A program made the position numbers and the translations under genes. The notes under the pieces were generated by a model, which was given only the letters and a program-made list of their open reading frames with translations, ran no database searches and had not been told where the DNA came from. From NCBI GenBank assembly GCA_964440975.1, contig CAYYKI010000001.1, positions 2,591-66,590 on the forward strand: 64,000 nt of DNA, read 5' to 3'. This stretch comes from an uncultured Candidatus Saccharibacteria bacterium (GTDB taxonomy: Bacteria; Patescibacteriota; Saccharimonadia; Saccharimonadales; CAZNVG01). Shown piece by piece: positions 1 to 12,360 of the stretch; the stretch's first letter is position 1, and each line of letters starts with the position of its first letter.

Positions 1-250
1 TAAGCGATCGTAGTCCCTCTTTCTTAGCACGTAGTTAGCCACTACATTTTTACCCGAATCTATATGTTTGTTTATTGTTTTTATTGCTAGATCCATAGAC
101 TTGTCTAAATCTGTAGCCAAGTTAAAATTTGGGATGGTGTCGTTTAGGTCGTCTACATTAATAAATACGGCATCAAGCTTTTTTGCTAAGGCCTTGGACG
201 TTGTGGTTTTCCCGGAATTTATACTTCCACTTATAAAAACGAGCATGGGT
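1..250 (-). CDS. P-loop NTPase / kinase-like protein, N-terminal part (gene runs off window start)
   Basis: Minus-strand translation from ATG at 248-250: MLVFISGSINSGKTTTSKALAKKLDAVFINVDDLND.... It has a Walker A motif (GSINSGKTT) and no in-frame stop before position 1. It is absent from the ORF track only because it is truncated. The plus-strand ORF 68-259 is its antisense shadow. Confidence 0.5.
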
Positions 251-348
251 ATATCTTAGCAAATAAAAAATCCAGTAGCCCTAGCTAATGGATAGGTTAT
301 CAAATATATAGTTTCGGCTCCCGCTGGGGGCGCTCTTCGAACTAAATG

Positions 349-1005
349 CTACTTTATCGCGACTGATTCAAGTATTTTAACCAGCGTCGGGTAATCGCGA
401 CTGTTCTTGCTGATATCTTGAGAGCTCAAACTACCGGTGACATAGTATTTTCCACTTACAAAGACGATCGACCTTGCTGGCTGTGATTCGTAGCCATATT
501 CGTATTCATAGGCTGGTTTATCTCCGATCTTGCGAGCTTCTTTTGTTGGTCCTTTACCATCAGGCCAATTTTGCAAGCCAGGCTCGAAGCGCTGATCAAG
601 TGTCTTACCTAGTCGATCCTCTACCACCAGGCTAATATTAGTGCCTGCTGTTACAGCCTCACTACCTATAGGTTCGGTTTGCGACTTCATATCGGGACTG
701 TTTATTGTGTATGGCATTAACTTGCCAGCCTCTCCGTAGCCACCACTCTTAGCAGTCCAGTCAGCCGGGTACTTAAAAGTGATGCCGTTTGGATCGTCGC
801 TGTAGGTTTTCCAACCTTCGTAAGGGTCTTTTGATGCTTGTGGTGCCGATGTTGGGCTGTTTGATGATGTTTGTGTAGTAGATTGTGTCTTTTTATCAGT
901 CCGATGCTCTTTTATGTACCAACCGAGTCCACCAATAAGACCTAGGACAACCACAACGATTACAACCTCTACCGCCGAGAAGCCTTTTTGATTGAGTTTT
1001 TTCAT
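349..1005 (-). CDS. prepilin-type N-terminal cleavage/methylation domain protein (type IV pilin-like)
   Basis: N-terminus MKKLNQKG|FSAVEVVIVVVVLGLIGG is a class III (prepilin) signal: Gly at -1, Phe at +1, Glu at +5, then a hydrophobic helix. Start moved to the internal Met (1005) because pilin leaders are short; the ORF-track start was 1035. Confidence 0.6.
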   Translation of the reverse strand: MKKLNQKGFSAVEVVIVVVVLGLIGGLGWYIKEHRTDKKTQSTTQTSSNSPTSAPQASKDPYEGWKTYSDDPNGITFKYPADWTAKSGGYGEAGKLMPYTINSPDMKSQTEPIGSEAVTAGTNISLVVEDRLGKTLDQRFEPGLQNWPDGKGPTKEARKIGDKPAYEYEYGYESQPARSIVFVSGKYYVTGSLSSQDISKNSRDYPTLVKILESVAIK

Positions 1006-1089
1006 GTTCCCATCCTTAAGCATTACTATTTTCACCTAATTATACCCCCCTGAAAAATCCACACAAGACATATGAGGGACTTATACGAG

Positions 1090-4000
1090 TTAGCGTATTG
1101 CCACAGCACCCGATTCTGAACTTAGGCGTTTGAACAGCACATATCGTTTGCCATTGAAGACTCTGGCAAAGCCAGAACGGAGCACTTCTTCACGAGGAAT
1201 CATTGCGACACCACCATAAGTTGCTTTCAAGTCATCCATTCGCCGTAGCACTGCTTGCTCTTCTGCGAGGATTGTCTGGTCGTCTTCATTAAATACTGTT
1301 TCAACGACGTGCTCGCCAATCTCAAAAGCAACAGCCATCTTGCGTGAATCACGTAGTGACTCCTTGGTCTTCTTGAACTTGAGTGATTTAATGCCCGCAG
1401 CGCCAATTAAGCCTGCTAATTCAGGAGCAGACTTCTCGCAGTCGCGCACTTTCTCCAATACGATTACTTGGCTTCTAAAGTTTGAGCCACTCAACGCTAT
1501 GCCACTACGATCATCGATTACAAAACCAAGTTCATCCATAGACTTTACAAAGGTTTCGGAATCTTCAAGGTCGAGCGAGTAAATCATATCGACGACTGCC
1601 TTGCCGCCAGGCTTTAACACCCGGTTTAGCTCGCGTAAGACCTGCAGGCGCTCAACATTTTTTCTGCTCGGAACGAAGCTTGTGTAGTGCAGACCAAGCG
1701 ATAGGTTTACATAATCCATTGAGCCGTCTTGTGCCGGCAAGTTTGTGAAGCTACCCACAATTTGCTGAACGCCAGCCTTAGCAAAGTGCTTTGGATTGAT
1801 ATCGACACTTACGACTGCTTCTGCTAGTTCTTCAGAAATATGCCGCTTCAACATTTCTGGACCAGACGCCACATCGAGTACTCGCAAGTTTTTCGCATCT
1901 TGCTTTCGCTCAGCTACAAACGCGTGGATCAATGTGCCCGATAGCCGTGCGACGTTCGCCTGGTAGCTCCGTGCACCAACCAAGTTTGCGTAACTCTCCG
2001 CATACTCTTGGTCGTACTGTACCAAGAACTTTTTAAAGTCTTCTTCGCCGAGCTCTTTAACGTGTCCGTAAATGCGCATCATCTTATCCCACGACGAGAA
2101 GTAATACTCTGCAAGCTCTGAGTTAACCTCTAAGTTTGGATCGACCTGTTTTTCAGCCTGACGCAACATCTCTCGTTCAATTTCTGAGATTGGCACGCCG
2201 CGCAGTAGCTTTTGCACCGCTTGGTACTTAGTCTGAATATACCGATGAATTCCGTCTTCGATAGTGCCAGCTGCGACAAAGGTTCGTACAATTAGATCTT
2301 GCTTCAAGCCAGGACGATACACGCGAGATCGCTGCTGGTGTTTGTCATAGACCGTCCATGGTTCGTTGTAGAAGTAGACTTCTTCGGCTGCAGAGAAGTC
2401 GACCCCAACGTCAGCCGTTTGGCCACTCACGACCAATAGAACTTTTTGATTGGTCTGGCGGAGCTCGTTTTGAATTTCCAAACGGCGTTCCTTTTTAATT
2501 GAACCATCGACGGTAAAGACCTGCACATCCCTAGGGATATCGAGTGTGTCGAGAATGTGATTGTCGCCGCGCATCACACCGTCGATGTAGTCATTCACGA
2601 ACATAACAACCTTGTCTTTTACGGCAAAGGTCTGGTGAAGAGCTGCACTAACGGCGAATTGCTTGGATCCTTCAATGTTTGGTGTGGCATCAAACATCTG
2701 CGGGTTTAACGTAAACTGGCGAAGAATTCTAAGTTTGTCCATCGGGCTTAACTCGTCTTCTTCAACAAGTAAACTATAGACTTCTTGCTCCTCAGGAGTT
2801 AGCTCAAAGCGCACAACTTCTTCACGTATAGCTGGCATATTGATACTTTCGGCAAGTTCTTTTTGTTGCATGCGAGGTACGAGCAGGCTACGTAGATCAA
2901 GGATATCGCCATTGATGATTTGATTAACCAGCTCTTTGTTTTCGATATCCGCAAATTGTTCTGGGTAGAGTAATTTTAGTGACAATGCAACGTCGCTAAT
3001 AGTGTTTGGTACTGGCGTGCCAGAGAGCATCACGAGATATTTGTCATCTCCGGAAACTTGCTCGGCCAACTCCAACAGATACTCCGAACGCACGCCAGTT
3101 TTGAGGTTTTTAAGCTTGTGGACTTCGTCCGTGATGAGCATGTCGAAGGGCAGTTGCTTCAGCAGCGGCGTGTAAATACCGTTCAGTCTTTCTTGAGAAA
3201 TCACTACATAGTCGTAATCGTTTGGTTCAACATCAGTAAGGTCTTCTGGACTCCCAACAATCAAAACTCGAGGTTCTTGTCCCGGCTTAAAGTAGCCTTT
3301 TTGTTTGCCTTTATCATCAACTTCGCTAGACAAAAAATCCTGCCAAACTTCGACTACATTGCTCGGCACAATAACCAATGCTTGCTGCACACCAAGAATT
3401 TCTTTAGCCATGATAGCCGAGGCACTCTTGCCCAAACCCATCTCGTCAGCGATCAGCATGCGATGCTTGAAGGCAATTTCTTGGACGTTAATACGTTGGT
3501 TAATATCGGGGAAGAGACGGTCATCGCCAAGCGAGTCGACAAGATGGTCTGGTTTGTGAATATTCTCAAAGATCAGCTTGTAGTAAGCTTCAGCCTCGTC
3601 AAGCACTGACTCGAGTTCTGGCGTTATAAAGTCCGCTGTTTCTGCGCGGATGTGTGCGATATAGTCAGCGACCAGCGCAGCACTTGCGTCATCTGGTTCA
3701 AGTTGCCCGGCATCATGCAATGCCCGCAAACAGTCCGCCTTAACAATCTCAGTTAGCCCATCCCGAAAGACCGTTTCGGCTAAGAGTCCGATGCCTTTCT
3801 CAAGCCCTTCAAGAGAGAATTGACCGCGCACAATAAGGTACTCACCCAAATAATCCGTAAGCGCACTTTTAACGTAGGGGACTGGTAACTTTCGATACTC
3901 AGGGTGTTGCTGGTACAAAATGTCTACGGCGTAATCAGAACCAAACAGGCTTACGAGCGATTCGAAATCCTGAGCCTCAATAGACTCGCCTTCGCCTATT

Positions 4001-5232
4001 TCAATAATGAAGTTCTTTAGGTTATTTTGAAGTTTAATTTGTTCAGGATGAACTCCATTATTTGCTTTAATCTCGCGATAGATGTGTATTTGAGCCTTAA
4101 CTCTTTCAGATGATTCTTTGTATAGGTACGTTACTCGATTACCATTTGACGCCCTAAAGACTCCAAAGCAACCATTAGAAAGCGCTCCGACTTCTCCTGC
4201 TATCCGTTCAACATATTTTCTATTAGCACTGATCTCCTCAGCAATCGCTCTAATACTCTGTGCGCCTTCAGGCGGTCTTCCACCTTCAAGTAATCCATTT
4301 ACTCTTACTTCAATTGCTGCAACATAATCATCATAAATGTGCTCGCGCACAATTCCGTTTCCGCATCTATGGTACCCCATACTTTCTTGGTATTGCGGCC
4401 GGAGCTCTTCTATGATTGCATCTACCGTATAGTCATCAATTCCAAATTTGACTGCCAGTCCATGCCGGGTATAAGAACCCTTCGGCGCAGGAACTGACCT
4501 GCCTCTCTCTTCCTTGATTGCTGCAACAAGCTCTGGTTGATAGTAATCTGATACTCTTCCCGTGGAACCTTTTTGGGCTACAACTTGCCCCGGATACCTC
4601 TGAGCTAACGACGCTGCTATTGCTGTTATAGTTTCCTGACTAGCACCAAGCTCTTTTGCAAGAGCTTTATTACTGGCTGCACCTTCGGGTTTAGGCTGGT
4701 GTTTAGCATATTCAGCTGCAATCTTGCTAACCGAAGATGGATCAAAATGTAAGGCAGGGGTACTTGTGGATGTTCCTTTTAGCTCACTTGTTAGCTCCTG
4801 CTCCTCGGCTTCTAACCTACTGATTAATCTTTTAATCGTTGCTACGTCAGTTCCAACTTGACTAGCGATGGAGCTAGCGGTAAGCCATCCTACTTTCGGT
4901 CTGCCTCTATTGGATAAAGCTAGTTTTATTCTCCCTGTAAGCTCTGGTTCATAGTGCTCAGCCCACTTTTTATTATCAAGCCTCAATCTTACAATTGAAT
5001 CCGGAATATCTTCGGCTAGAGTCCTTGCTGTTTTCTTTACCAGACCGACGCTAACCTCGAGTTCTCTTGCAAGGTTAACTGCTGCTGAAGGAAGTTCAGG
5101 CTCTAAATTCCCATTCCCGTTCTCGGTTTGACCACTATACTTACCCTTCTCTTCCTGAGACACATCTAAACTACATACGGAGATGCCAGACTGCGACTCA
5201 AACTTTCCAGCTTCCGGTACGATCTCACTCAT
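1090..5232 (-). CDS. SNF2-family helicase with C-terminal SAM-dependent methyltransferase-like domain and N-terminal tandem HTH-like repeats (1380 aa)
   Basis: SNF2_N motifs: LIADEMGLGKSASAIMAKEIL (motif I) and MLITDEVHKLKN (DExH box). Helicase C-domain: VLLVVSGQTADVGVDFSAAEEVYFYNEPW...QQRSRVYRPG. C-terminal class I methyltransferase motifs: VLDVASGPE (motif I) ... VDIN ... LKPGGKAVV. The N-terminal ~500 aa contain about five repeats of a ~60-aa module ([IL]A.E[LIV]G.....[IV]..[IL]...[LV], plus recurring (H/D)Y.PEL). Confidence 0.7.
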   Translation of the reverse strand: MSEIVPEAGKFESQSGISVCSLDVSQEEKGKYSGQTENGNGNLEPELPSAAVNLARELEVSVGLVKKTARTLAEDIPDSIVRLRLDNKKWAEHYEPELTGRIKLALSNRGRPKVGWLTASSIASQVGTDVATIKRLISRLEAEEQELTSELKGTSTSTPALHFDPSSVSKIAAEYAKHQPKPEGAASNKALAKELGASQETITAIAASLAQRYPGQVVAQKGSTGRVSDYYQPELVAAIKEERGRSVPAPKGSYTRHGLAVKFGIDDYTVDAIIEELRPQYQESMGYHRCGNGIVREHIYDDYVAAIEVRVNGLLEGGRPPEGAQSIRAIAEEISANRKYVERIAGEVGALSNGCFGVFRASNGNRVTYLYKESSERVKAQIHIYREIKANNGVHPEQIKLQNNLKNFIIEIGEGESIEAQDFESLVSLFGSDYAVDILYQQHPEYRKLPVPYVKSALTDYLGEYLIVRGQFSLEGLEKGIGLLAETVFRDGLTEIVKADCLRALHDAGQLEPDDASAALVADYIAHIRAETADFITPELESVLDEAEAYYKLIFENIHKPDHLVDSLGDDRLFPDINQRINVQEIAFKHRMLIADEMGLGKSASAIMAKEILGVQQALVIVPSNVVEVWQDFLSSEVDDKGKQKGYFKPGQEPRVLIVGSPEDLTDVEPNDYDYVVISQERLNGIYTPLLKQLPFDMLITDEVHKLKNLKTGVRSEYLLELAEQVSGDDKYLVMLSGTPVPNTISDVALSLKLLYPEQFADIENKELVNQIINGDILDLRSLLVPRMQQKELAESINMPAIREEVVRFELTPEEQEVYSLLVEEDELSPMDKLRILRQFTLNPQMFDATPNIEGSKQFAVSAALHQTFAVKDKVVMFVNDYIDGVMRGDNHILDTLDIPRDVQVFTVDGSIKKERRLEIQNELRQTNQKVLLVVSGQTADVGVDFSAAEEVYFYNEPWTVYDKHQQRSRVYRPGLKQDLIVRTFVAAGTIEDGIHRYIQTKYQAVQKLLRGVPISEIEREMLRQAEKQVDPNLEVNSELAEYYFSSWDKMMRIYGHVKELGEEDFKKFLVQYDQEYAESYANLVGARSYQANVARLSGTLIHAFVAERKQDAKNLRVLDVASGPEMLKRHISEELAEAVVSVDINPKHFAKAGVQQIVGSFTNLPAQDGSMDYVNLSLGLHYTSFVPSRKNVERLQVLRELNRVLKPGGKAVVDMIYSLDLEDSETFVKSMDELGFVIDDRSGIALSGSNFRSQVIVLEKVRDCEKSAPELAGLIGAAGIKSLKFKKTKESLRDSRKMAVAFEIGEHVVETVFNEDDQTILAEEQAVLRRMDDLKATYGGVAMIPREEVLRSGFARVFNGKRYVLFKRLSSESGAVAIR

Positions 5233-5259
5233 AAAACAAAAAATACCATATAAATGGTA
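5233..5259 (-). terminator. rho-independent terminator downstream of the tRNA-Asn 3' end
   Basis: On the minus strand, directly after the CCA end: hairpin TACCAT-TTAT-ATGGTA (plus-strand 5244-5259) followed by TTTTTTGTTTT. Confidence 0.4.
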
Positions 5260-5312
5260 CTTTGTAAAACTTGGCTCCGGGGAAAGGATTCGAACCTTCG
5301 ACCTAGTGGTTA

Positions 5313-5870
5313 CACTTAATCACTGCTTTCACAGCGTGTGGACTATCTCATCTTGCTTATCAAAAATGATCTGCAAGCAGGGCGCTTATGAGAGATTATT
5401 GTTAGGCTCACTCTCTAGTCTCTGAACCTTCCTGAGTCTCTTAACCTAACTCAGGCTTGGCTGCGGATTACCATATCGTACGACGTAGGCTTCCCGACAA
5501 TTCACCCTGTTTTCACTATGGGATTACTCACCATAGGCTGCACTTTTACTAACCCTGCATGAATTTCTCTATGACAATTTGCGCATACAAGTATGCATTT
5601 ATCTGCTTCTGCCCTGACTTTTTCCCAAGAACGAGTAAGCCCTTTCGACGAAATTCCAAACTCTTTCTGAGATGCATCTATGTGATGAAGATCAAGCGCA
5701 TCAACACAATTGCTATAGCCACATTTCACGCACTGACCGCCTTTATACTCAACAAGCTTTCTGCGAACTGCCTTTCGACGTTTCGCAACTGCCATCTTGA
5801 GATAATCGGCACGATCAGCATAGGTTCGACGATCCGGCATACAACCTAGTGTATACCATTTGGTGTTCGT
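5313..5870 (-). mobile_element. group I self-splicing intron (558 bp) inserted between tRNA-Asn positions 35 and 36, carrying an HNH ORF
   Basis: The 5' exon ends in U (U35) and the intron ends in G (omegaG, complement of 5313). The intron 3' part, minus-strand sense, contains the conserved group I core elements: P-like ATTGTCGGGAAGCC directly after the ORF stop, Q-like AATCCGCAGCC, R-like GGTTCAGAGACTAGA, S-like AAGATGAGATAGTCC (P7 pairing GACTA/TAGTC). Confidence 0.8.
5502..5840 (-). CDS. HNH homing endonuclease (intron-encoded, 112 aa)
   Basis: CxxC...LHHID...CANCHREIH, i.e. the HNH motif with zinc-binding Cys pairs. The ORF starts 30 nt into the intron and ends one nucleotide before the P element. 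Confidence 0.75.
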   Translation of the reverse strand: MPDRRTYADRADYLKMAVAKRRKAVRRKLVEYKGGQCVKCGYSNCVDALDLHHIDASQKEFGISSKGLTRSWEKVRAEADKCILVCANCHREIHAGLVKVQPMVSNPIVKTG

Positions 5871-5904
5871 ACAGCCACCCGCTCTACCGCTGAGCTACCC
5901 CGGA

Positions 5905-5960
5905 ATGTATATAAAAGGTGCGATCACCACAGGTAATACAGGGGTAGATTATAGTTTGAA
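5905..5960 (-). promoter_or_regulatory. possible promoter for the tRNA-Asn gene
   Basis: Minus-strand sense upstream of tRNA nt 1: TTACCT-19nt-TATACA ending about 6 nt before +1. A perfect TATAAT lies further upstream. Weak, sequence-gazing only. Confidence 0.2.
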
Positions 5961-5990
5961 TGGAGTAGTTGGTCAAATAATATTGCCCTG

Positions 5991-6437
5991 CTAGCTTTTG
6001 CCCTTAATAGCCGTCAAGCGAGCAATGAATGAATTCGCCGCCCCATCCATGCCAAGCACCTTCAGTGCCCCAACCAATACATACAATTCATCAACTTTGT
6101 TCTTGTTGCCAGTTGGTTCTTGTTCCACCTGCCTAAAGTAGTGATCCACTTTCTCTACCAACCACTTTTCTTGGGTCTCGCTGACCGCGTTGGAGCTGAT
6201 TTTCGTTTCGATATTGCCATCAACAACCTCAAGTGACCTTGCTGACCGATCGCGTTTTCGTAAGTGACCTCTCTTGATGAGGCTATCAACATGCAGCGCT
6301 ACCGTTGCTACCGAGTTATAGCCGCACCCATTCATAATCTCGCGATAGCTGGGGCTGTACCCGTGCTCACCAATAAAGGCAGCGATAAATCGTAACAATT
6401 GCTGCTGCTTTTTAGTCGGACGAATTTGCTCGGCCAT
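5991..6437 (-). CDS. LexA-like winged-helix DNA-binding protein lacking an S24 peptidase domain
   Basis: N-terminus KKQQQLLRFIAAFIGEHGYSPSYREIMNGCGYNSVATVALHVDSLIKRGHLRKRD matches the LexA N-terminal DNA-binding domain pattern. The C-terminal 70 aa have no Ser/Lys peptidase motifs. Confidence 0.5.
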   Translation of the reverse strand: MAEQIRPTKKQQQLLRFIAAFIGEHGYSPSYREIMNGCGYNSVATVALHVDSLIKRGHLRKRDRSARSLEVVDGNIETKISSNAVSETQEKWLVEKVDHYFRQVEQEPTGNKNKVDELYVLVGALKVLGMDGAANSFIARLTAIKGKS

Positions 6438-6468
6438 AGATACCTATATTATACGCTATTGCTTACCA

Positions 6469-7848
6469 CTATGCTGCAAGCCGCTGATCCCACCCTTTAA
6501 GAAGGCTGTTTTTAATAGACTTACGTGCAATAGAATCTTTGCTCGCCGGAAATGTGAGCTGCGCTTTTGCTGGTAGATACAGTACGTATCCCGCAACACC
6601 CCACCATATTATTGCAAGGGTATCATCGGCCCATATGTGCAGCAATAGGCTCGCCACAGCCAGTCCCATGCCAGAAACAAACAGTGTGATTGGCCAACGG
6701 TACTTTCGCATACTGAATGCTCGCAGCAACACAGTGGCATATATCATCACAAACAACACTAGCCCTACAACGCCAACTTCTTGCGCAATCTGTACATAGT
6801 AATTTTCGGCCATACGCGTACCGCTCTTTTGTAAATTAACAGACGCCGGCCCTGCACTACCCGGCCCTGTCCCAAGTGGCTGATTTACAACGTCTTTGAG
6901 CCCAGCCTGCAATGCCGCAATATGACCATCGTTGCTAGTAACGGCAACGTTTGTTTCGTCGGTATGAAAAATGCTGTTCTCTATAAAGTTATTATCGCGG
7001 AAAGCTACCACAATTGCTGCTGCCACAACCATACCGACTACACCAAACGTAAGGCCTCTTTTTAACTGTGCAGGGGTCGCCTGCAATGCCGCATACAATG
7101 CAACCGCCAGCATAGCTGCAATCCACGCCGAGCGCGAAAAAGTACATACCAGCACCGCAAGACTTGCCGCAATCGCAACACGTGCCTGCTGCTTCTTAGC
7201 GCTGCGAACAAGGGGTAATAGTGCGCTCATTAGTACGACAATGTAGGCCCCGAACGGGTTGGGTCCTCGCAGGGTTGAACTGTATCGTAGTACATTCGAT
7301 CCGTCATGGAGCTTAGTGAATGGCCGAATAGTGCCTGGTCCAAAACCAAACCAGCGCAAAAAATCACTTGGTAGGACGGTTATTTGTAGTACGCCAAAAA
7401 CTATCGTCATGAGTCCAGTAGTCAATACTACTTTGGTAAGTAACTTCACGTCTTTTTTGTCTGTGTAGTGATGGGCGAGTATTTGCCCCAACAGGAACAT
7501 CGCTACAATGCGTAGGTTTATCATCAGCCCCGCAATCAACGCTCTCGCCTCCGGTCGACGCCAAGCAGCAATCGCGATATGCAAAACGATGTACCACAGC
7601 ACCAACCAGTTAACTCTGCGCCCCACCATTGCTAATCGCAGTTTTTTGTCTTTTGCAAATAGCCAAAACGCTAGCGGTGTAACTGCAGCAATCATTAGTT
7701 GCGGGACTATCTTAAACCAGTCAATGTGTCCAATGGTTGTGCCCGCCCATACATATATAAGTGCATGAAACGGCACATAGGCGAGTATCAACAAGAACCC
7801 TATCCATAGCAACTTGTTTGCAGTGTCGAGGTATTTGGGCGTAGCCAT
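6469..7848 (-). CDS. polytopic membrane protein, O-antigen ligase/polymerase (Wzy_C)-like
   Basis: About 10-12 predicted TM helices with a large periplasmic loop, sitting in a glycan-biosynthesis context. Family assignment is tentative. Confidence 0.4.
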   Translation of the reverse strand: MATPKYLDTANKLLWIGFLLILAYVPFHALIYVWAGTTIGHIDWFKIVPQLMIAAVTPLAFWLFAKDKKLRLAMVGRRVNWLVLWYIVLHIAIAAWRRPEARALIAGLMINLRIVAMFLLGQILAHHYTDKKDVKLLTKVVLTTGLMTIVFGVLQITVLPSDFLRWFGFGPGTIRPFTKLHDGSNVLRYSSTLRGPNPFGAYIVVLMSALLPLVRSAKKQQARVAIAASLAVLVCTFSRSAWIAAMLAVALYAALQATPAQLKRGLTFGVVGMVVAAAIVVAFRDNNFIENSIFHTDETNVAVTSNDGHIAALQAGLKDVVNQPLGTGPGSAGPASVNLQKSGTRMAENYYVQIAQEVGVVGLVLFVMIYATVLLRAFSMRKYRWPITLFVSGMGLAVASLLLHIWADDTLAIIWWGVAGYVLYLPAKAQLTFPASKDSIARKSIKNSLLKGWDQRLAA

Positions 7849-11028: not shown

Positions 11029-11254
11029 ACTAGTTATGATTATAAACTAGCTGGATACCTGTAATGTAAATACTTTTGGATCGATAATAAGTTTGACAAG
11101 CAGTGAGTACGATTCTAAGGGCGATAGCCGAAGCCATCACATGCCTGCATAAACGGAACCCGTAGGGGTCCACCAGTAGCCGAAGCCGCTGATGGACCCC
11201 ATGGGCCCGGTCCCGTCGGATCTCAGTTGTTGTGCGCGGTTCTACCGCCGTCGA

Positions 11255-12049
11255 TCAGGACGTGGAGGCCGCCGTCTCGCTGGAGGCGTCGGGGTCGAGA
11301 CCCTCGCTGCCGCCGCTGGAGGCGCCCGCTCCCGACCACCAGTCGTCGCCGTTGGACGTGTCGGGGTCGAGACCACCGCCGCTGCTGCCGCTGCCACCGT
11401 CGGTCGATGCCGTCGTCTGCTGACGCGAGCCGGGGGAACCCCAGCCGTCGTCGAAGCTGCCGAAGACGGGCTGCCTGGAGGAGCCGAAGGGCCTGCCGAA
11501 GCCGCCGATGACGCGCAGGCCACCGATGTCGCCGGACAGGTTCCCGAAGAGGGCGCCACCGAACAGCTGCTCGAGGTTGAGAGAACCGCTGGCCTGCTGC
11601 AACTCGCCGAGGTAGTCGGTCAGGACCGGCTTGTACAGCCAGCTGGTGACCACGTCGACGACACCCTTGCCGACGATGCCCGGGAGGGCACGTCGGATGA
11701 CCTCCGCCGGCAGCGGCAGGTGCACCGTGGCGGTGATGGTGAGCGAGAGGCTGACGTCGTCGATCTCGGCGTTGAGGGTCGACACGATCTCGCCGGACGA
11801 ACCGTCGGTGGACGCGTCGTAGCCCTTCATCGCGCTGAACACGGAGTCGAGGCCGCGCGGGACAGCGGTGTTGAGGTTCTTGACGAGACGCTGCTGCGCC
11901 GTGTCGGCGATGGCGGCGAGCGTCTCGTCGTCCATCGATCCGGAGACGATGGTGGCAGGGTCGTAGGTCAGCTCGAGGACGGTGTTGATGGACGCGTGCG
12001 TGAACGAGACGTACGCCGCACGTGTGATCTGATGTCGATTGGACTGCAT
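11255..12049 (-). CDS. hypothetical protein encoded in a ~70% GC patch (264 aa; Gly/Ser/Asp-rich C-terminus)
   Basis: ORF with extreme GC3: nearly every codon ends in G/C (atg cag tcc aat cga cat cag atc ...). AGGAG sits about 11 nt upstream of the ATG. The overlapping plus-strand ORFs are Arg-rich antisense shadows. Confidence 0.5.
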   Translation of the reverse strand: MQSNRHQITRAAYVSFTHASINTVLELTYDPATIVSGSMDDETLAAIADTAQQRLVKNLNTAVPRGLDSVFSAMKGYDASTDGSSGEIVSTLNAEIDDVSLSLTITATVHLPLPAEVIRRALPGIVGKGVVDVVTSWLYKPVLTDYLGELQQASGSLNLEQLFGGALFGNLSGDIGGLRVIGGFGRPFGSSRQPVFGSFDDGWGSPGSRQQTTASTDGGSGSSGGGLDPDTSNGDDWWSGAGASSGGSEGLDPDASSETAASTS

Positions 12050-12360
12050 CGGAATGCTTTCTCCTCGCTATGGCAGGGTTGCCTAGCTCCCATTCATTAG
12101 GGGGCTATATGTGTACTCTTGACACACAAAGTGAGGACCAAACCCAGCTTCACCGAGCTTAGTTCTCACCTCGTGTATCTAAACTGCTTGTCAAGGAGCT
12201 TTGGAGCAAAATGCGCCAGTATATACACCGGCTGCAAACTCCGCTCAACAAAACTTTGCAAATTATAGTGTTTTTATTGCATATTGTCAATAGCTTTATG
12301 ACTGCAACCTTGTTTACTGTTATATGTTGTTTTAAACGCAAGACGGTATACTATTTTTAG

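Follow-up and report, generated by a model that had tools for sequence, protein, structure and literature searches.

What lies on either side of the tRNA-Asn gene near the left end of a 64-kb stretch of Saccharibacteria DNA, and how much of it is mobile? The stretch analyzed here, called the window below, comprises 64,000 nucleotides (nt) from an uncultured Candidatus Saccharibacteria bacterium (GenBank assembly GCA_964440975.1, contig CAYYKI010000001.1, positions 2,591 to 66,590 of the forward strand). A preliminary description of its first 5,904 nt took an intact tRNA-Asn gene as the anchor of an island-like block of genes, namely a large SNF2 helicase/methyltransferase gene, a prepilin-like gene, and a P-loop gene, and mentioned neither an intron nor an endonuclease, although both lie within the same 5,904 nt. 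Our analysis points to two separate mobile-DNA features side by side: a predicted self-splicing group I intron with an HNH endonuclease in the tRNA-Asn gene, and a genome-specific block in a flank that is a recombinase hot spot among relatives. We assign this reading a probability of about 0.72.

A group I intron interrupts the tRNA-Asn gene

The proteins of the window were searched against Pfam, NCBIfam/TIGRFAM, PHROG, and PADLOC, tRNA genes were sought with ARAGORN, and other RNAs with Rfam covariance models. ARAGORN called no tRNA in the whole 64-kb window. Rfam returned a single feature over the window, a full-length group I intron on the minus strand (positions 5320-5560), which matched RF00028 with 76.5 bits (threshold 50) over model positions 1-253 of 253, at an E value of about 1e-17 to 1e-18. 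The intact tRNA-Asn gene described previously was therefore a misreading: the gene is split by this intron into two exons separated by 558 nt (Table 1). Deletion of positions 5313-5870 yields a canonical 75-nt cloverleaf of tRNA-Asn(GUU), and the insertion point falls after U35, i.e., between positions 35 and 36 of the anticodon.

Relatives of the locus were found by a scan in which each species was represented by a single genome and the query was the 34-nt 5' exon with two free positions. At least 119 tRNA-Asn loci are listed, nearly all from Candidatus Saccharibacteria/Saccharimonadales, and all counts for relatives given below refer to these; in dividing them into interrupted and intact classes, an ambiguous "other" class was sorted by eye. 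Uninterrupted alleles (GGCTGT/TAACCAC, with the slash at the insertion point; anticodon GTT) account for 79 of the 119 loci, 39 are interrupted directly after CTGT, and one is cut by the locus end; the intron is thus found at the identical site in 39 of 118 species representatives. The junction that splicing would create in the window is the same as that of the 79 uninterrupted alleles. A candidate junction two bases away (5873/5314), which would give tRNA-Thr(UGU), was ruled out by the uninterrupted alleles, which read CTGT/TAACCAC, and also by the intron helix P1, which puts the U.G wobble after U35. The predicted tRNA identity, Asn and not Thr, is settled by these alleles of relatives.

The introns of relatives score 92-102 bits against RF00028. 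Complete introns number 35, including that of the window, and most have no open reading frame (ORF). The ORF-less copies (n = 27, L067 counted) measure 224-314 nt, those with an intact ORF of 103-115 amino acids (aa) measure 540-558 nt (window, L009, L092, L104, and L117), and the decayed ones are found in L091 (71-aa ORF), L114 (511 nt), and L052 (343 nt). In L055, the intron is cut by the locus end and contains a 96-aa HNH match at 74% identity. Counted by its state, the HNH is intact or probably intact in five relatives, decayed in three, and free-standing beside the tRNA in four. A terminal G (omega-G) is present in all complete introns except L067, for which the boundary call is probably off, and the guide GCAGC[C/T] is present in all of them. 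In ORF-less introns, 6-39 nt separate the guide from the 5' splice site; in ORF-bearing ones this distance is ~325 nt, which places the ORF in the loop of P1.

The helices of the window intron (P1-P9, with P7 as a pseudoknot) were written out and scored on an alignment of 34 sequences. In this alignment, 96.5% of the cells are paired versus 31-45% with slid partners, compensatory double changes occur at 31 of 56 pairs, and the covariation score is 0.413 versus at most 0.085 for the slid controls; the observed pairing and covariation values were reached by none of 500 shuffles. P7 is invariant, and so is P1 (GGCUGU/GCAGCC, with a U.G pair at the splice site). By its score, its P1 with this U.G pair, its omega-G, and its P3-P9 core, the element is a group I intron, and the covariation marks it as a ribozyme under constraint rather than a relic.

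In the modeled fold, P7 (5' strand) and P3 (3' strand) are separated by an additional hairpin, which we take to be a feature of subgroup IA, unlike the IC3 type of known tRNA introns. Two subtypes of the intron in the alignment differ in this same region, where there is either one hairpin with a conserved GTGAGCCTAACAATAATC loop or a TTCC..GGAA hairpin plus a second hairpin. L118, L059, L015, L112, L072, L109, L110, L081, and L083 make up one subtype, and the rest make up the other.

Previous work has placed bacterial group I introns in tRNA genes for Leu, fMet, Ile, and Arg, with one endonuclease in a tRNA-fMet intron (2014 review, PMC3984707), and a study of candidate phyla radiation (CPR) genomes remarks in passing that some tRNAs carry group I introns (PMC8172020). 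The literature covered here, which is incomplete, yielded no report of a tRNA-Asn intron or of an HNH-bearing tRNA intron. The Saccharibacteria intron resembles the known anticodon-loop introns (cyanobacterial tRNA-Leu(UAA) and tRNA-fMet, Azoarcus tRNA-Ile, and Agrobacterium tRNA-Arg; PMC3984707) in its insertion into the anticodon loop, in a P1 that uses anticodon-stem/loop exon sequence, and in its patchy spread among related species as mostly ORF-less copies. It differs from them in its host tRNA, Asn(GUU), in its site (35/36), in its phylum (Saccharibacteria, CPR), and in the extra hairpin between P7 and P3.

The HNH endonuclease and its free-standing and phage relatives

The ORF in the P1 loop matches PHROG HNH families at 2.8e-28 and 2.8e-25. 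Pfam HNH gave no match to the window copy at E <= 0.01, and a free-standing copy (L121) does match it. The catalytic and zinc signature CxxC..HH..CxxCH (CANCH) is conserved in the eight in-frame copies of the alignment, from which the out-of-frame reference row of L092 was left out. The guide sequence, P2, and the P3 5' strand share sequence with the last ~13 codons of the ORF. With this motif, its location in an intron, and both empty and occupied sites (79 and 39), the protein is a predicted HNH homing endonuclease.

Free-standing homologues with 50-57% identity occur beside an ORF-less-intron tRNA-Asn in four relatives, within ~50-200 nt (Table 1). By analogy with phages, this is the arrangement that would be expected for collaborative (trans) homing. 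In a rough neighbor-joining tree, the intronic HNH clade is sister to the free-standing Saccharibacteria clade and the phage copies fall outside; the direction of HNH capture may tentatively be read from this rough tree.

Viral contigs of IMG/VR contain HNH relatives at 45-65% identity (34% at the weakest locus, L209). In all 20 viral loci scanned, the HNH lies inside a dense array of same-strand tRNA genes, and no group I intron was detected in these 20 loci. The nearest tRNA neighbor of the phage HNH, called by ARAGORN in an intron-aware mode, has the anticodon GTT in 17 of 22 loci (~14 of 18 non-redundant). Three phage tRNA-Asn genes beside an HNH carry anticodon-loop insertions of 48-51 nt (51 nt in L202 and L203, 48 nt in L198), and a longer one is found in L194 (Table 1); at 48-96 nt, all are far too short for group I introns. 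Several GUU-anticodon tRNAs beside the phage HNH are 85-89 nt long, with a long variable arm and a class II-like body. The HNH nickases of phage T5 and SegB of phage T4 are also located in tRNA gene regions.

The tRNA-intron endonuclease I-Ssp6803I is a PD-(D/E)XK enzyme. The window protein differs from it in being an HNH enzyme with a Cys4 zinc site, encoded in the P1 loop, and in having free-standing sister copies and phage relatives; its cleavage is predicted. I-Ssp6803I belongs to the tRNA-fMet intron of Synechocystis, as quoted in a review (Bonocora and Shub 2001, cited in PMC3984707). The phage precedents are the collaborative-homing model (PMC3984707) and the free-standing endonuclease mobE of T4 (PMC2790892). 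As in collaborative homing, one HNH lineage is found here both free-standing beside ORF-less intron alleles and inside the intron. The setting extends beyond phage protein-coding genes: the Saccharibacteria series is complete at a single chromosomal tRNA site in many species of a cellular phylum.

We propose that a promoter ~44 nt upstream probably drives transcription of tRNA-Asn as an exon-intron-exon precursor. The ribozyme between U35 and U36 would then remove itself, using P1 between exon GGCUGU and guide GCAGCC and the omega-G at its 3' end, and splicing would leave a normal 75-nt tRNA-Asn. The HNH in the P1 loop (beta-beta-alpha-metal, Cys4 zinc) would cut or nick intron-less tRNA(GUU) genes near CTGT/TAA, and repair after the cut would copy the intron into the empty site (homing). 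The Saccharibacteria alleles show every stage of such a life cycle, namely the empty site, the ORF-less intron, the ORF-less intron with a free-standing HNH, the HNH in P1, and the decayed HNH. More speculatively, and with slightly less than even confidence, we suggest that this HNH lineage is specialized on tRNA(GUU) anticodon-loop DNA and moves between phage tRNA arrays (some on contigs of >400 kb) and Saccharibacteria chromosomes, with the tRNA-Asn locus keeping every birth-and-death stage of a mobile intron across >100 species. If so, the 48-96-nt insertions of phages would be a further undescribed way to protect or interrupt the target site.

The tRNA-Asn 3' flank is an integration hot spot in relatives

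Within positions 1-6500, the window has five ORFs on the minus strand (Table 1), and the gene of the 1380-aa SNF2-methyltransferase starts 39 nt after the CCA end of the tRNA. The preliminary description had also placed a prepilin-like gene and a P-loop gene in the block, both of which are present, and a LexA-like DNA-binding protein without a protease domain across the tRNA, for which a LexA domain is indeed all that was found. The upstream side is conserved: by tblastn, a LexA-like gene lies directly upstream of tRNA-Asn in L082, L089, and L101, with an O-antigen-ligase-like gene beside it in all three and a sugar-transferase gene in two of them. The SNF2-methyltransferase and pilin-like proteins have no tblastn match at any of the 119 loci. 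The comparison with relatives proposed earlier for these accessory-looking genes thus revealed no shared synteny of the block at tRNA-Asn.

The P-loop gene at the left edge of the window behaves differently from these two. At the DNA level, L059 and L106 resemble the window only in the exons of the tRNA, the core of the intron, and the P-loop gene. Full-length homologues of this gene in the two genomes (157 aa, 76% identity) are found 1.3 and 3.7 kb, respectively, from tRNA-Asn on its downstream side; their family matches are weak (AAA_18, Cytidylate_kin2, and CPT). Since the P-loop gene recurs 3' of tRNA-Asn in L059 and L106, the window-specific insert spans roughly positions 247-5271.

The first gene downstream of tRNA-Asn was then counted in the 77 loci that have at least 1.2 kb of downstream sequence. 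It belongs to one cluster of large serine recombinases (Pfam Resolvase, Recombinase, and Zn_ribbon_recom) in 14 of them, and nearly all others are singletons. The recombinase gene is opposite in strand to the tRNA, and in at least eight loci the complement of the tRNA 3' end encodes its last codons. In several relatives, this tRNA end is found again as a direct repeat downstream, and other cargo at the flank includes Fic, CdiA_C, AbiEii, and TOTE primase genes. In Saccharibacteria, the region 3' of tRNA-Asn is hypervariable and a hot spot of integration, and the recombinase family looks like a tRNA-Asn-specific family of integrative elements of this phylum.

Members of the recombinase family that overlap the tRNA end are found in L011, L023, L043, L049, L053, L088, L089 (4654-6132, minus strand), L090, and others. 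A separate observation concerns a conserved tRNA-like element of ~130-160 nt that closely follows tRNA-Asn in at least 16 of the 119 loci (L017, L033, L051, L076, L080, L091, L110, L067, and others), which is absent from the window. It consists, in order, of an acceptor-like strand, variable-loop/T-stem sequence, an insert of ~65 nt with a co-varying hairpin, and a T-stem/acceptor/CCA segment that is identical to that of the tRNA-Asn of the same genome. The element matched no Rfam family, and it could be an attachment-site (att) scar of serine-recombinase elements or an undescribed tRNA-derived RNA.

The 1380-aa protein defines a family of SNF2-methyltransferase fusions

The domain composition proposed for the 1380-aa protein held up, with an SNF2 ATPase and a class I methyltransferase (SNF2-rel_dom, Helicase_C, and Methyltransf_11), and the "about five" tandem ~60-aa helix-turn-helix-like modules turned out to be exactly five, of ~66 aa each. 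The repeats lie at aa 51-108, 115-175, 182-242, 250-312, and 321-382 (independent E values of 6e-12 to 1.5e-3), as determined with a hidden Markov model built from homologues only, the window protein being left out. Their consensus weakly matches a winged helix-turn-helix (wHTH) family (HTH_29, E = 1e-5), just below the curated cut-off, and the middle domain (aa 400-580) matched nothing in Pfam. The best PDB match of the SNF2 core is 1z63, the Rad54-like SNF2 of Sulfolobus (1.4e-16), chromatin remodelers are likewise close, and the core matches phrog_62 at 1.6e-41. The columns of Walker A (DEMGLGKS), DEVH, and motif VI are invariant in the family alignment.

The C-terminal 340 aa were modeled with AlphaFold2 (AF2; predicted local distance difference test score, pLDDT, 76). 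In a Foldseek search, the top match of the model is RRP8/nucleomethylin (2zfu, 7e-9), followed by generic class I methyltransferases, e.g., Bud23, Trm11, RlmA, and SAMTOR; 2zfu is also the only PDB sequence-profile match of the methyltransferase domain (9e-5). No DNA methyltransferase was found among its Foldseek, Pfam, NCBIfam, and PDB-profile matches. A DNA-type methyltransferase had been expected; the domain is Methyltransf_11/UbiE-like in sequence and closest to RRP8 in structure, an outcome that the preliminary description itself had listed as counting against its reading. The likeness to RRP8/nucleomethylin, an rRNA 1-methyladenosine (m1A) methyltransferase, amounts to ~22% identity with low template modeling (TM) scores of 0.38/0.56, and unlike RRP8 the window domain is fused to an SNF2 ATPase and to a further C-terminal domain of ~135 aa.

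A word-index search returned six clusters and made the family look extremely rare, an idea that was rejected when an exhaustive profile search with the C-terminal module returned 142 clusters at E <= 1e-30, nearly all of them with the module at the C-terminus of 1000-2600-aa proteins. A metagenome scan added two more SNF2-methyltransferase loci. The family keeps a core of middle domain, SNF2 ATPase, methyltransferase, and C-terminal domain, and its N-terminal arrays vary in repeat type and number, which suggests that they are a fast-evolving recognition module. Of the seven informative loci of the close subfamily, four have the gene immediately 3' of a same-strand tRNA (Asn and Glu once each, Gln twice), and distant members have no upstream tRNA and partly housekeeping-type neighbors; the tRNA adjacency, seen in the close subfamily only, is suggestive. 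Most close homologues (L001-L005) have an extended -10 motif, T.TGTATAAT, ~25-30 nt before the ATG. This motif is absent upstream of the SNF2-methyltransferase gene of the window (5233-5271), where a weak promoter-like match was found (TTTACA-17-TATTTT, 5268->5240), and the gene may be expressed by read-through from the tRNA or from a weak leaderless promoter. Judged from its domains, the protein is probably a double-stranded DNA-translocating ATPase that is placed by a sequence-reading wHTH array and coupled to a class I S-adenosylmethionine (SAM) methyltransferase, which probably acts on RNA or protein and not on DNA bases.

Individual members illustrate the N-terminal arrays: P0012 has ~ten PEGW-type wHTH repeats, P0025 has ~sixteen of a different type, P0048 and P0078 have other repeat types, and P0015 has none. 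Two homologues are split into overlapping ORF pairs, L186 (1663-3000 / 2997-6791) and L187 (1122-4784 / 4747-5421), which are either frameshifted pseudogenes or assembly errors.

Comparisons with defense, plasmid, and phage proteins converged on the SNF2 core. The NCBIfam DrmD models NF038318 and NF038317 scored 44.2 bits against a cut-off of 950 and 25 against 610, DpdE scored 36 against 500, and the curated RapA and pilus-Snf2 models were also far below their cut-offs. PADLOC gave domain-level matches to ZorD, DrmD, and DpdE, with that to DrmD covering only aa 592-821; there was no strong PADLOC match in the pilin-like and P-loop neighbors, and DrmA/B/C partner genes were not found. Plasmid and phage records cover at most 41% of the protein, with all matches at aa ~450-1026 and 22-26% identity, and the IMG/VR matches span aa ~590-1012 only. 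Neither the DISARM-like defense component nor the plasmid/phage helicase-methylase proposed earlier is supported by these results: the former finds domain-level matches, no partner genes, and an RRP8-like methyltransferase, and the latter shares the SNF2 core only. What the window protein has in common with DrmD of DISARM, ZorD of Zorya, DpdE of Dpd, and the helicase-methylase fusions of plasmids and phages, taken together, is an SNF2 core (~20-26% identity) in a very large multidomain protein with a methyltransferase domain as well. The methyltransferase of the window is Methyltransf_11/RRP8-like and not of the DNA-type N6/N4/C5 kind, and the wHTH array and middle domain of the window have no counterpart in plasmid or phage records.

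Discussion

The block of ~5 kb (~247-5271), with the SNF2-methyltransferase gene and the pilin-like gene, lies in the flank that large-serine-recombinase elements target in relatives. It is like a tRNA-linked genomic island in that it abuts a tRNA 3' end and is absent from that site in relatives, some of which add a recombinase overlapping the tRNA end and direct repeats of that end; these recombinases are of the large serine type, not tyrosine integrases. It differs from such islands in having no recombinase, repeat, or compositional signature within the window: no recombinase was found among the ORFs of positions 1-5904 (Pfam, PHROG, and NCBIfam), and no integrase or tRNA-Asn 3'-end repeat within the 64 kb. 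The island proposed by the preliminary description thus stands with respect to a hypervariable 3' flank and a block missing from relatives, and falls short with respect to the integrase, the att repeat, and a compositional shift. The block is in a hot spot and is not itself demonstrably mobile. Since it has neither recombinase nor att repeat, it is most likely an old immobilized insertion, or was acquired otherwise.

Several observations weigh against the reading of two mobile features side by side. The serine recombinase of relatives has no match anywhere in the 64 kb, and the tRNA 3' end has no copy in the window at <= 3 mismatches, although a distal border may lie outside it. There is no GC step at position 5272, the GC content being 0.43-0.48 across 1-10 kb, and on these three counts the evidence for mobility of the block is circumstantial. 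The part of the window downstream of the tRNA measures 5.2 kb, and since the neighboring proteins of the nearest relatives are 57-79% identical, presence and absence are compared at species or genus distance. A 142-cluster family with distant members in housekeeping-type contexts fits vertical inheritance as well as mobility. On the side of the intron, P10 was not identified in the fold, and the predicted HNH target, the anticodon-loop DNA around CTGT/TAA, is deduced from gene adjacency.

Among the competing explanations, the one that survives best, although we regard it as unlikely, is that the block is vertically inherited, lineage-specific chromosome. The SNF2-methyltransferase would then belong to a chromosomal protein family of these bacteria and have a transcription- or RNA-related role, as a RapA-like remodeler joined to an RNA methyltransferase, and the variable flank would reflect fast turnover of gene order in small genomes. 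The size of the family and its conserved core agree with this, as do the lack of a GC shift, the homologues with their own conserved promoter, the similarity of the methyltransferase to rRNA and tRNA methyltransferases, and distant members that lie beside RecG, RsmD-like, and HisRS genes or glycosyltransferases. It is less easily reconciled with the absence of the gene from the tRNA-Asn flank at all 119 loci and with neighbors that differ at every homologue locus; close homologues also lie beside three tRNA identities, two homologues look frameshifted, the N-terminal arrays are hypervariable, and a core gene would be expected to have more than 142 clusters among the 1.84 billion representatives of the library.

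We consider it improbable that the block belongs, as its end next to the tRNA, to an integrated defense or plasmid-like island with a DISARM-type or conjugative-plasmid-type helicase/DNA-methylase; the integrase and att repeat of such an island would lie just left of the window. The flank is a proven hot spot in relatives, where Fic, CdiA_C, AbiEii, and TOTE genes occupy the same site, and the SNF2 core has its domain-level matches to ZorD, DrmD, and DpdE. In the window, however, the tRNA-abutting position of the recombinase is held by the SNF2-methyltransferase gene, on the strand of the tRNA, and the P-loop gene, found 3' of tRNA-Asn in two further genomes as well, suggests that the insert ends before it. 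The far sub-threshold DrmD and DpdE scores, the lack of partner genes, the RRP8/UbiE-like methyltransferase, and plasmid and phage records that cover no more than the SNF2 core likewise argue against an island of this kind. Saccharibacteria genomes usually have single-copy tRNA genes. That the interrupted tRNA-Asn is a dead gene with a non-splicing intron, served by a second intact copy elsewhere, is very improbable, for while the window is only 64 kb of the genome and ARAGORN finds no other tRNA there, the two exons are undamaged and agree with functional alleles, the structure of the intron core is clearly constrained in 34 species with P1 and P7 invariant, one third of the species have an intron at this site, and the genomes of the phylum are small (~1 Mb contigs).

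The reading of an intron-split tRNA-Asn gene next to a genome-specific block has several implications. The tRNA finder missed the gene, and the interruption is found in about one in three of the Saccharibacteria species sampled; such genomes therefore look as if they had no tRNA-Asn, which affects completeness estimates and inferences about translation for CPR bacteria. Very few bacterial tRNA genes are known to have a group I intron with an endonuclease, and here a large natural series at one site holds intronic, free-standing, and phage-borne copies of one endonuclease lineage. With this series, the route from a free-standing endonuclease and an ORF-less intron to a composite mobile intron becomes testable by comparison. 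The comparison also reveals a serine-recombinase hot spot 3' of tRNA-Asn in an uncultured phylum and groups SNF2-class I methyltransferase fusions into a family whose repeat arrays at the N-terminus are hypervariable.

Table 1. Coordinates of the features discussed, in the window and in related bacterial and viral loci
Feature	Locus	Position	Strand	Basis or remark
P-loop NTPase/kinase-like gene, N-terminal 82 codons, runs off window	Window	1..246 (partial)	-	GSINSGKTT in translation
Type IV pilin-like protein, 228 aa	Window	349..1035	-	Pfam N_methyl 9e-5, PsbP_2 1.3e-8; TIGR02532 prepilin N-terminal domain
1380-aa fusion: five wHTH-like repeats, middle domain, SNF2 ATPase, class I methyltransferase, C-terminal domain	Window	1090..5232	-	Pfam, family alignment, PDB profile search
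Class I SAM-methyltransferase domain, aa ~1088-1243, and conserved C-terminal domain to aa 1380	Window	1093..1971	-	Methyltransf_11 9.5e-11, Ubie_methyltran, Methyltransf_8
SNF2-type ATPase core, aa ~579-1026	Window	2155..3498	-	SNF2-rel_dom 2.5e-13, Helicase_C 3.2e-9
Five tandem ~66-aa wHTH-like repeats, aa 51-382	Window	4087..5082	-	Repeat model built from homologues
39-nt spacer, tRNA 3' end to SNF2-methyltransferase start codon; AT-rich hairpin and T-run	Window	5233..5271	-	Sequence
tRNA-Asn(GUU) 3' exon, U36 to CCA	Window	5272..5312	-	Splice reconstruction; junction same as intron-less alleles of relatives
Group I intron, 558 nt, omega-G at 5313	Window	5313..5870	-	Rfam RF00028 76.5 bits, core 5320-5560
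HNH homing-endonuclease ORF, 112 aa, in P1 loop	Window	5502..5840	-	PHROG HNH families 2.8e-28, 2.8e-25
Internal guide sequence GCAGCC, 3' strand of P1, pairs with exon GGCUGU	Window	5536..5541	-	U.G wobble at splice site
tRNA-Asn(GUU) 5' exon, positions 1-35	Window	5871..5904	-	Exact pattern matches among the 119 Saccharibacteria loci listed
Promoter-like site TTGACC-17-TATAAT, ~44 nt upstream of tRNA 5' end	Window	5948..5976	-	Consensus match, 11/12, best in region
LexA-DNA-binding-domain-only protein, 148 aa, upstream neighbor of tRNA-Asn, outside block	Window	5991..6437	-	LexA_DNA_bind 4.7e-13
Free-standing HNH	L113	288-581	+	Upstream of tRNA, same strand
Free-standing HNH	L121	4664-5095	+	Upstream of tRNA, same strand
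Free-standing HNH	L073	4562-4879	+	Upstream of tRNA, same strand
Free-standing HNH	L118	6358-6660	-	Downstream of tRNA, convergent
Viral HNH loci	L188-L209	~3001-3250 in most		
tRNA-Asn with insertion	L202	3293-3418		CTGT/TAA position
tRNA-Asn with insertion	L203	700-825		CTGT/TAA position
tRNA-Asn with insertion	L198	2194-2316		Anticodon loop
tRNA-Asn with ~96-nt insertion	L194	3650-3817		CTGT/TAA position

Other features

In the 148-aa LexA-like protein, LexA_DNA_bind covers aa 8-67 and the match to TIGR00498 reaches 49.8 bits (cut-off 110.95); no S24 autopeptidase domain was found in it by Pfam or NCBIfam, and it is therefore not classed as a full LexA repressor. Among the relatives, L022 has a cobalamin riboswitch match at 3149-3241 that is just over the Rfam threshold (33.8 bits versus 31.5). 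Further along the window, inside a cell-envelope polysaccharide gene cluster, a 0.9-kb patch at 11190-12100 has a GC content of 64% against a background of ~46% and contains low-complexity ORFs that overlap on both strands. These ORFs (11.2-12.1 kb) had no Pfam match, and the patch may have been inserted from a foreign source or may reflect a chimeric assembly.

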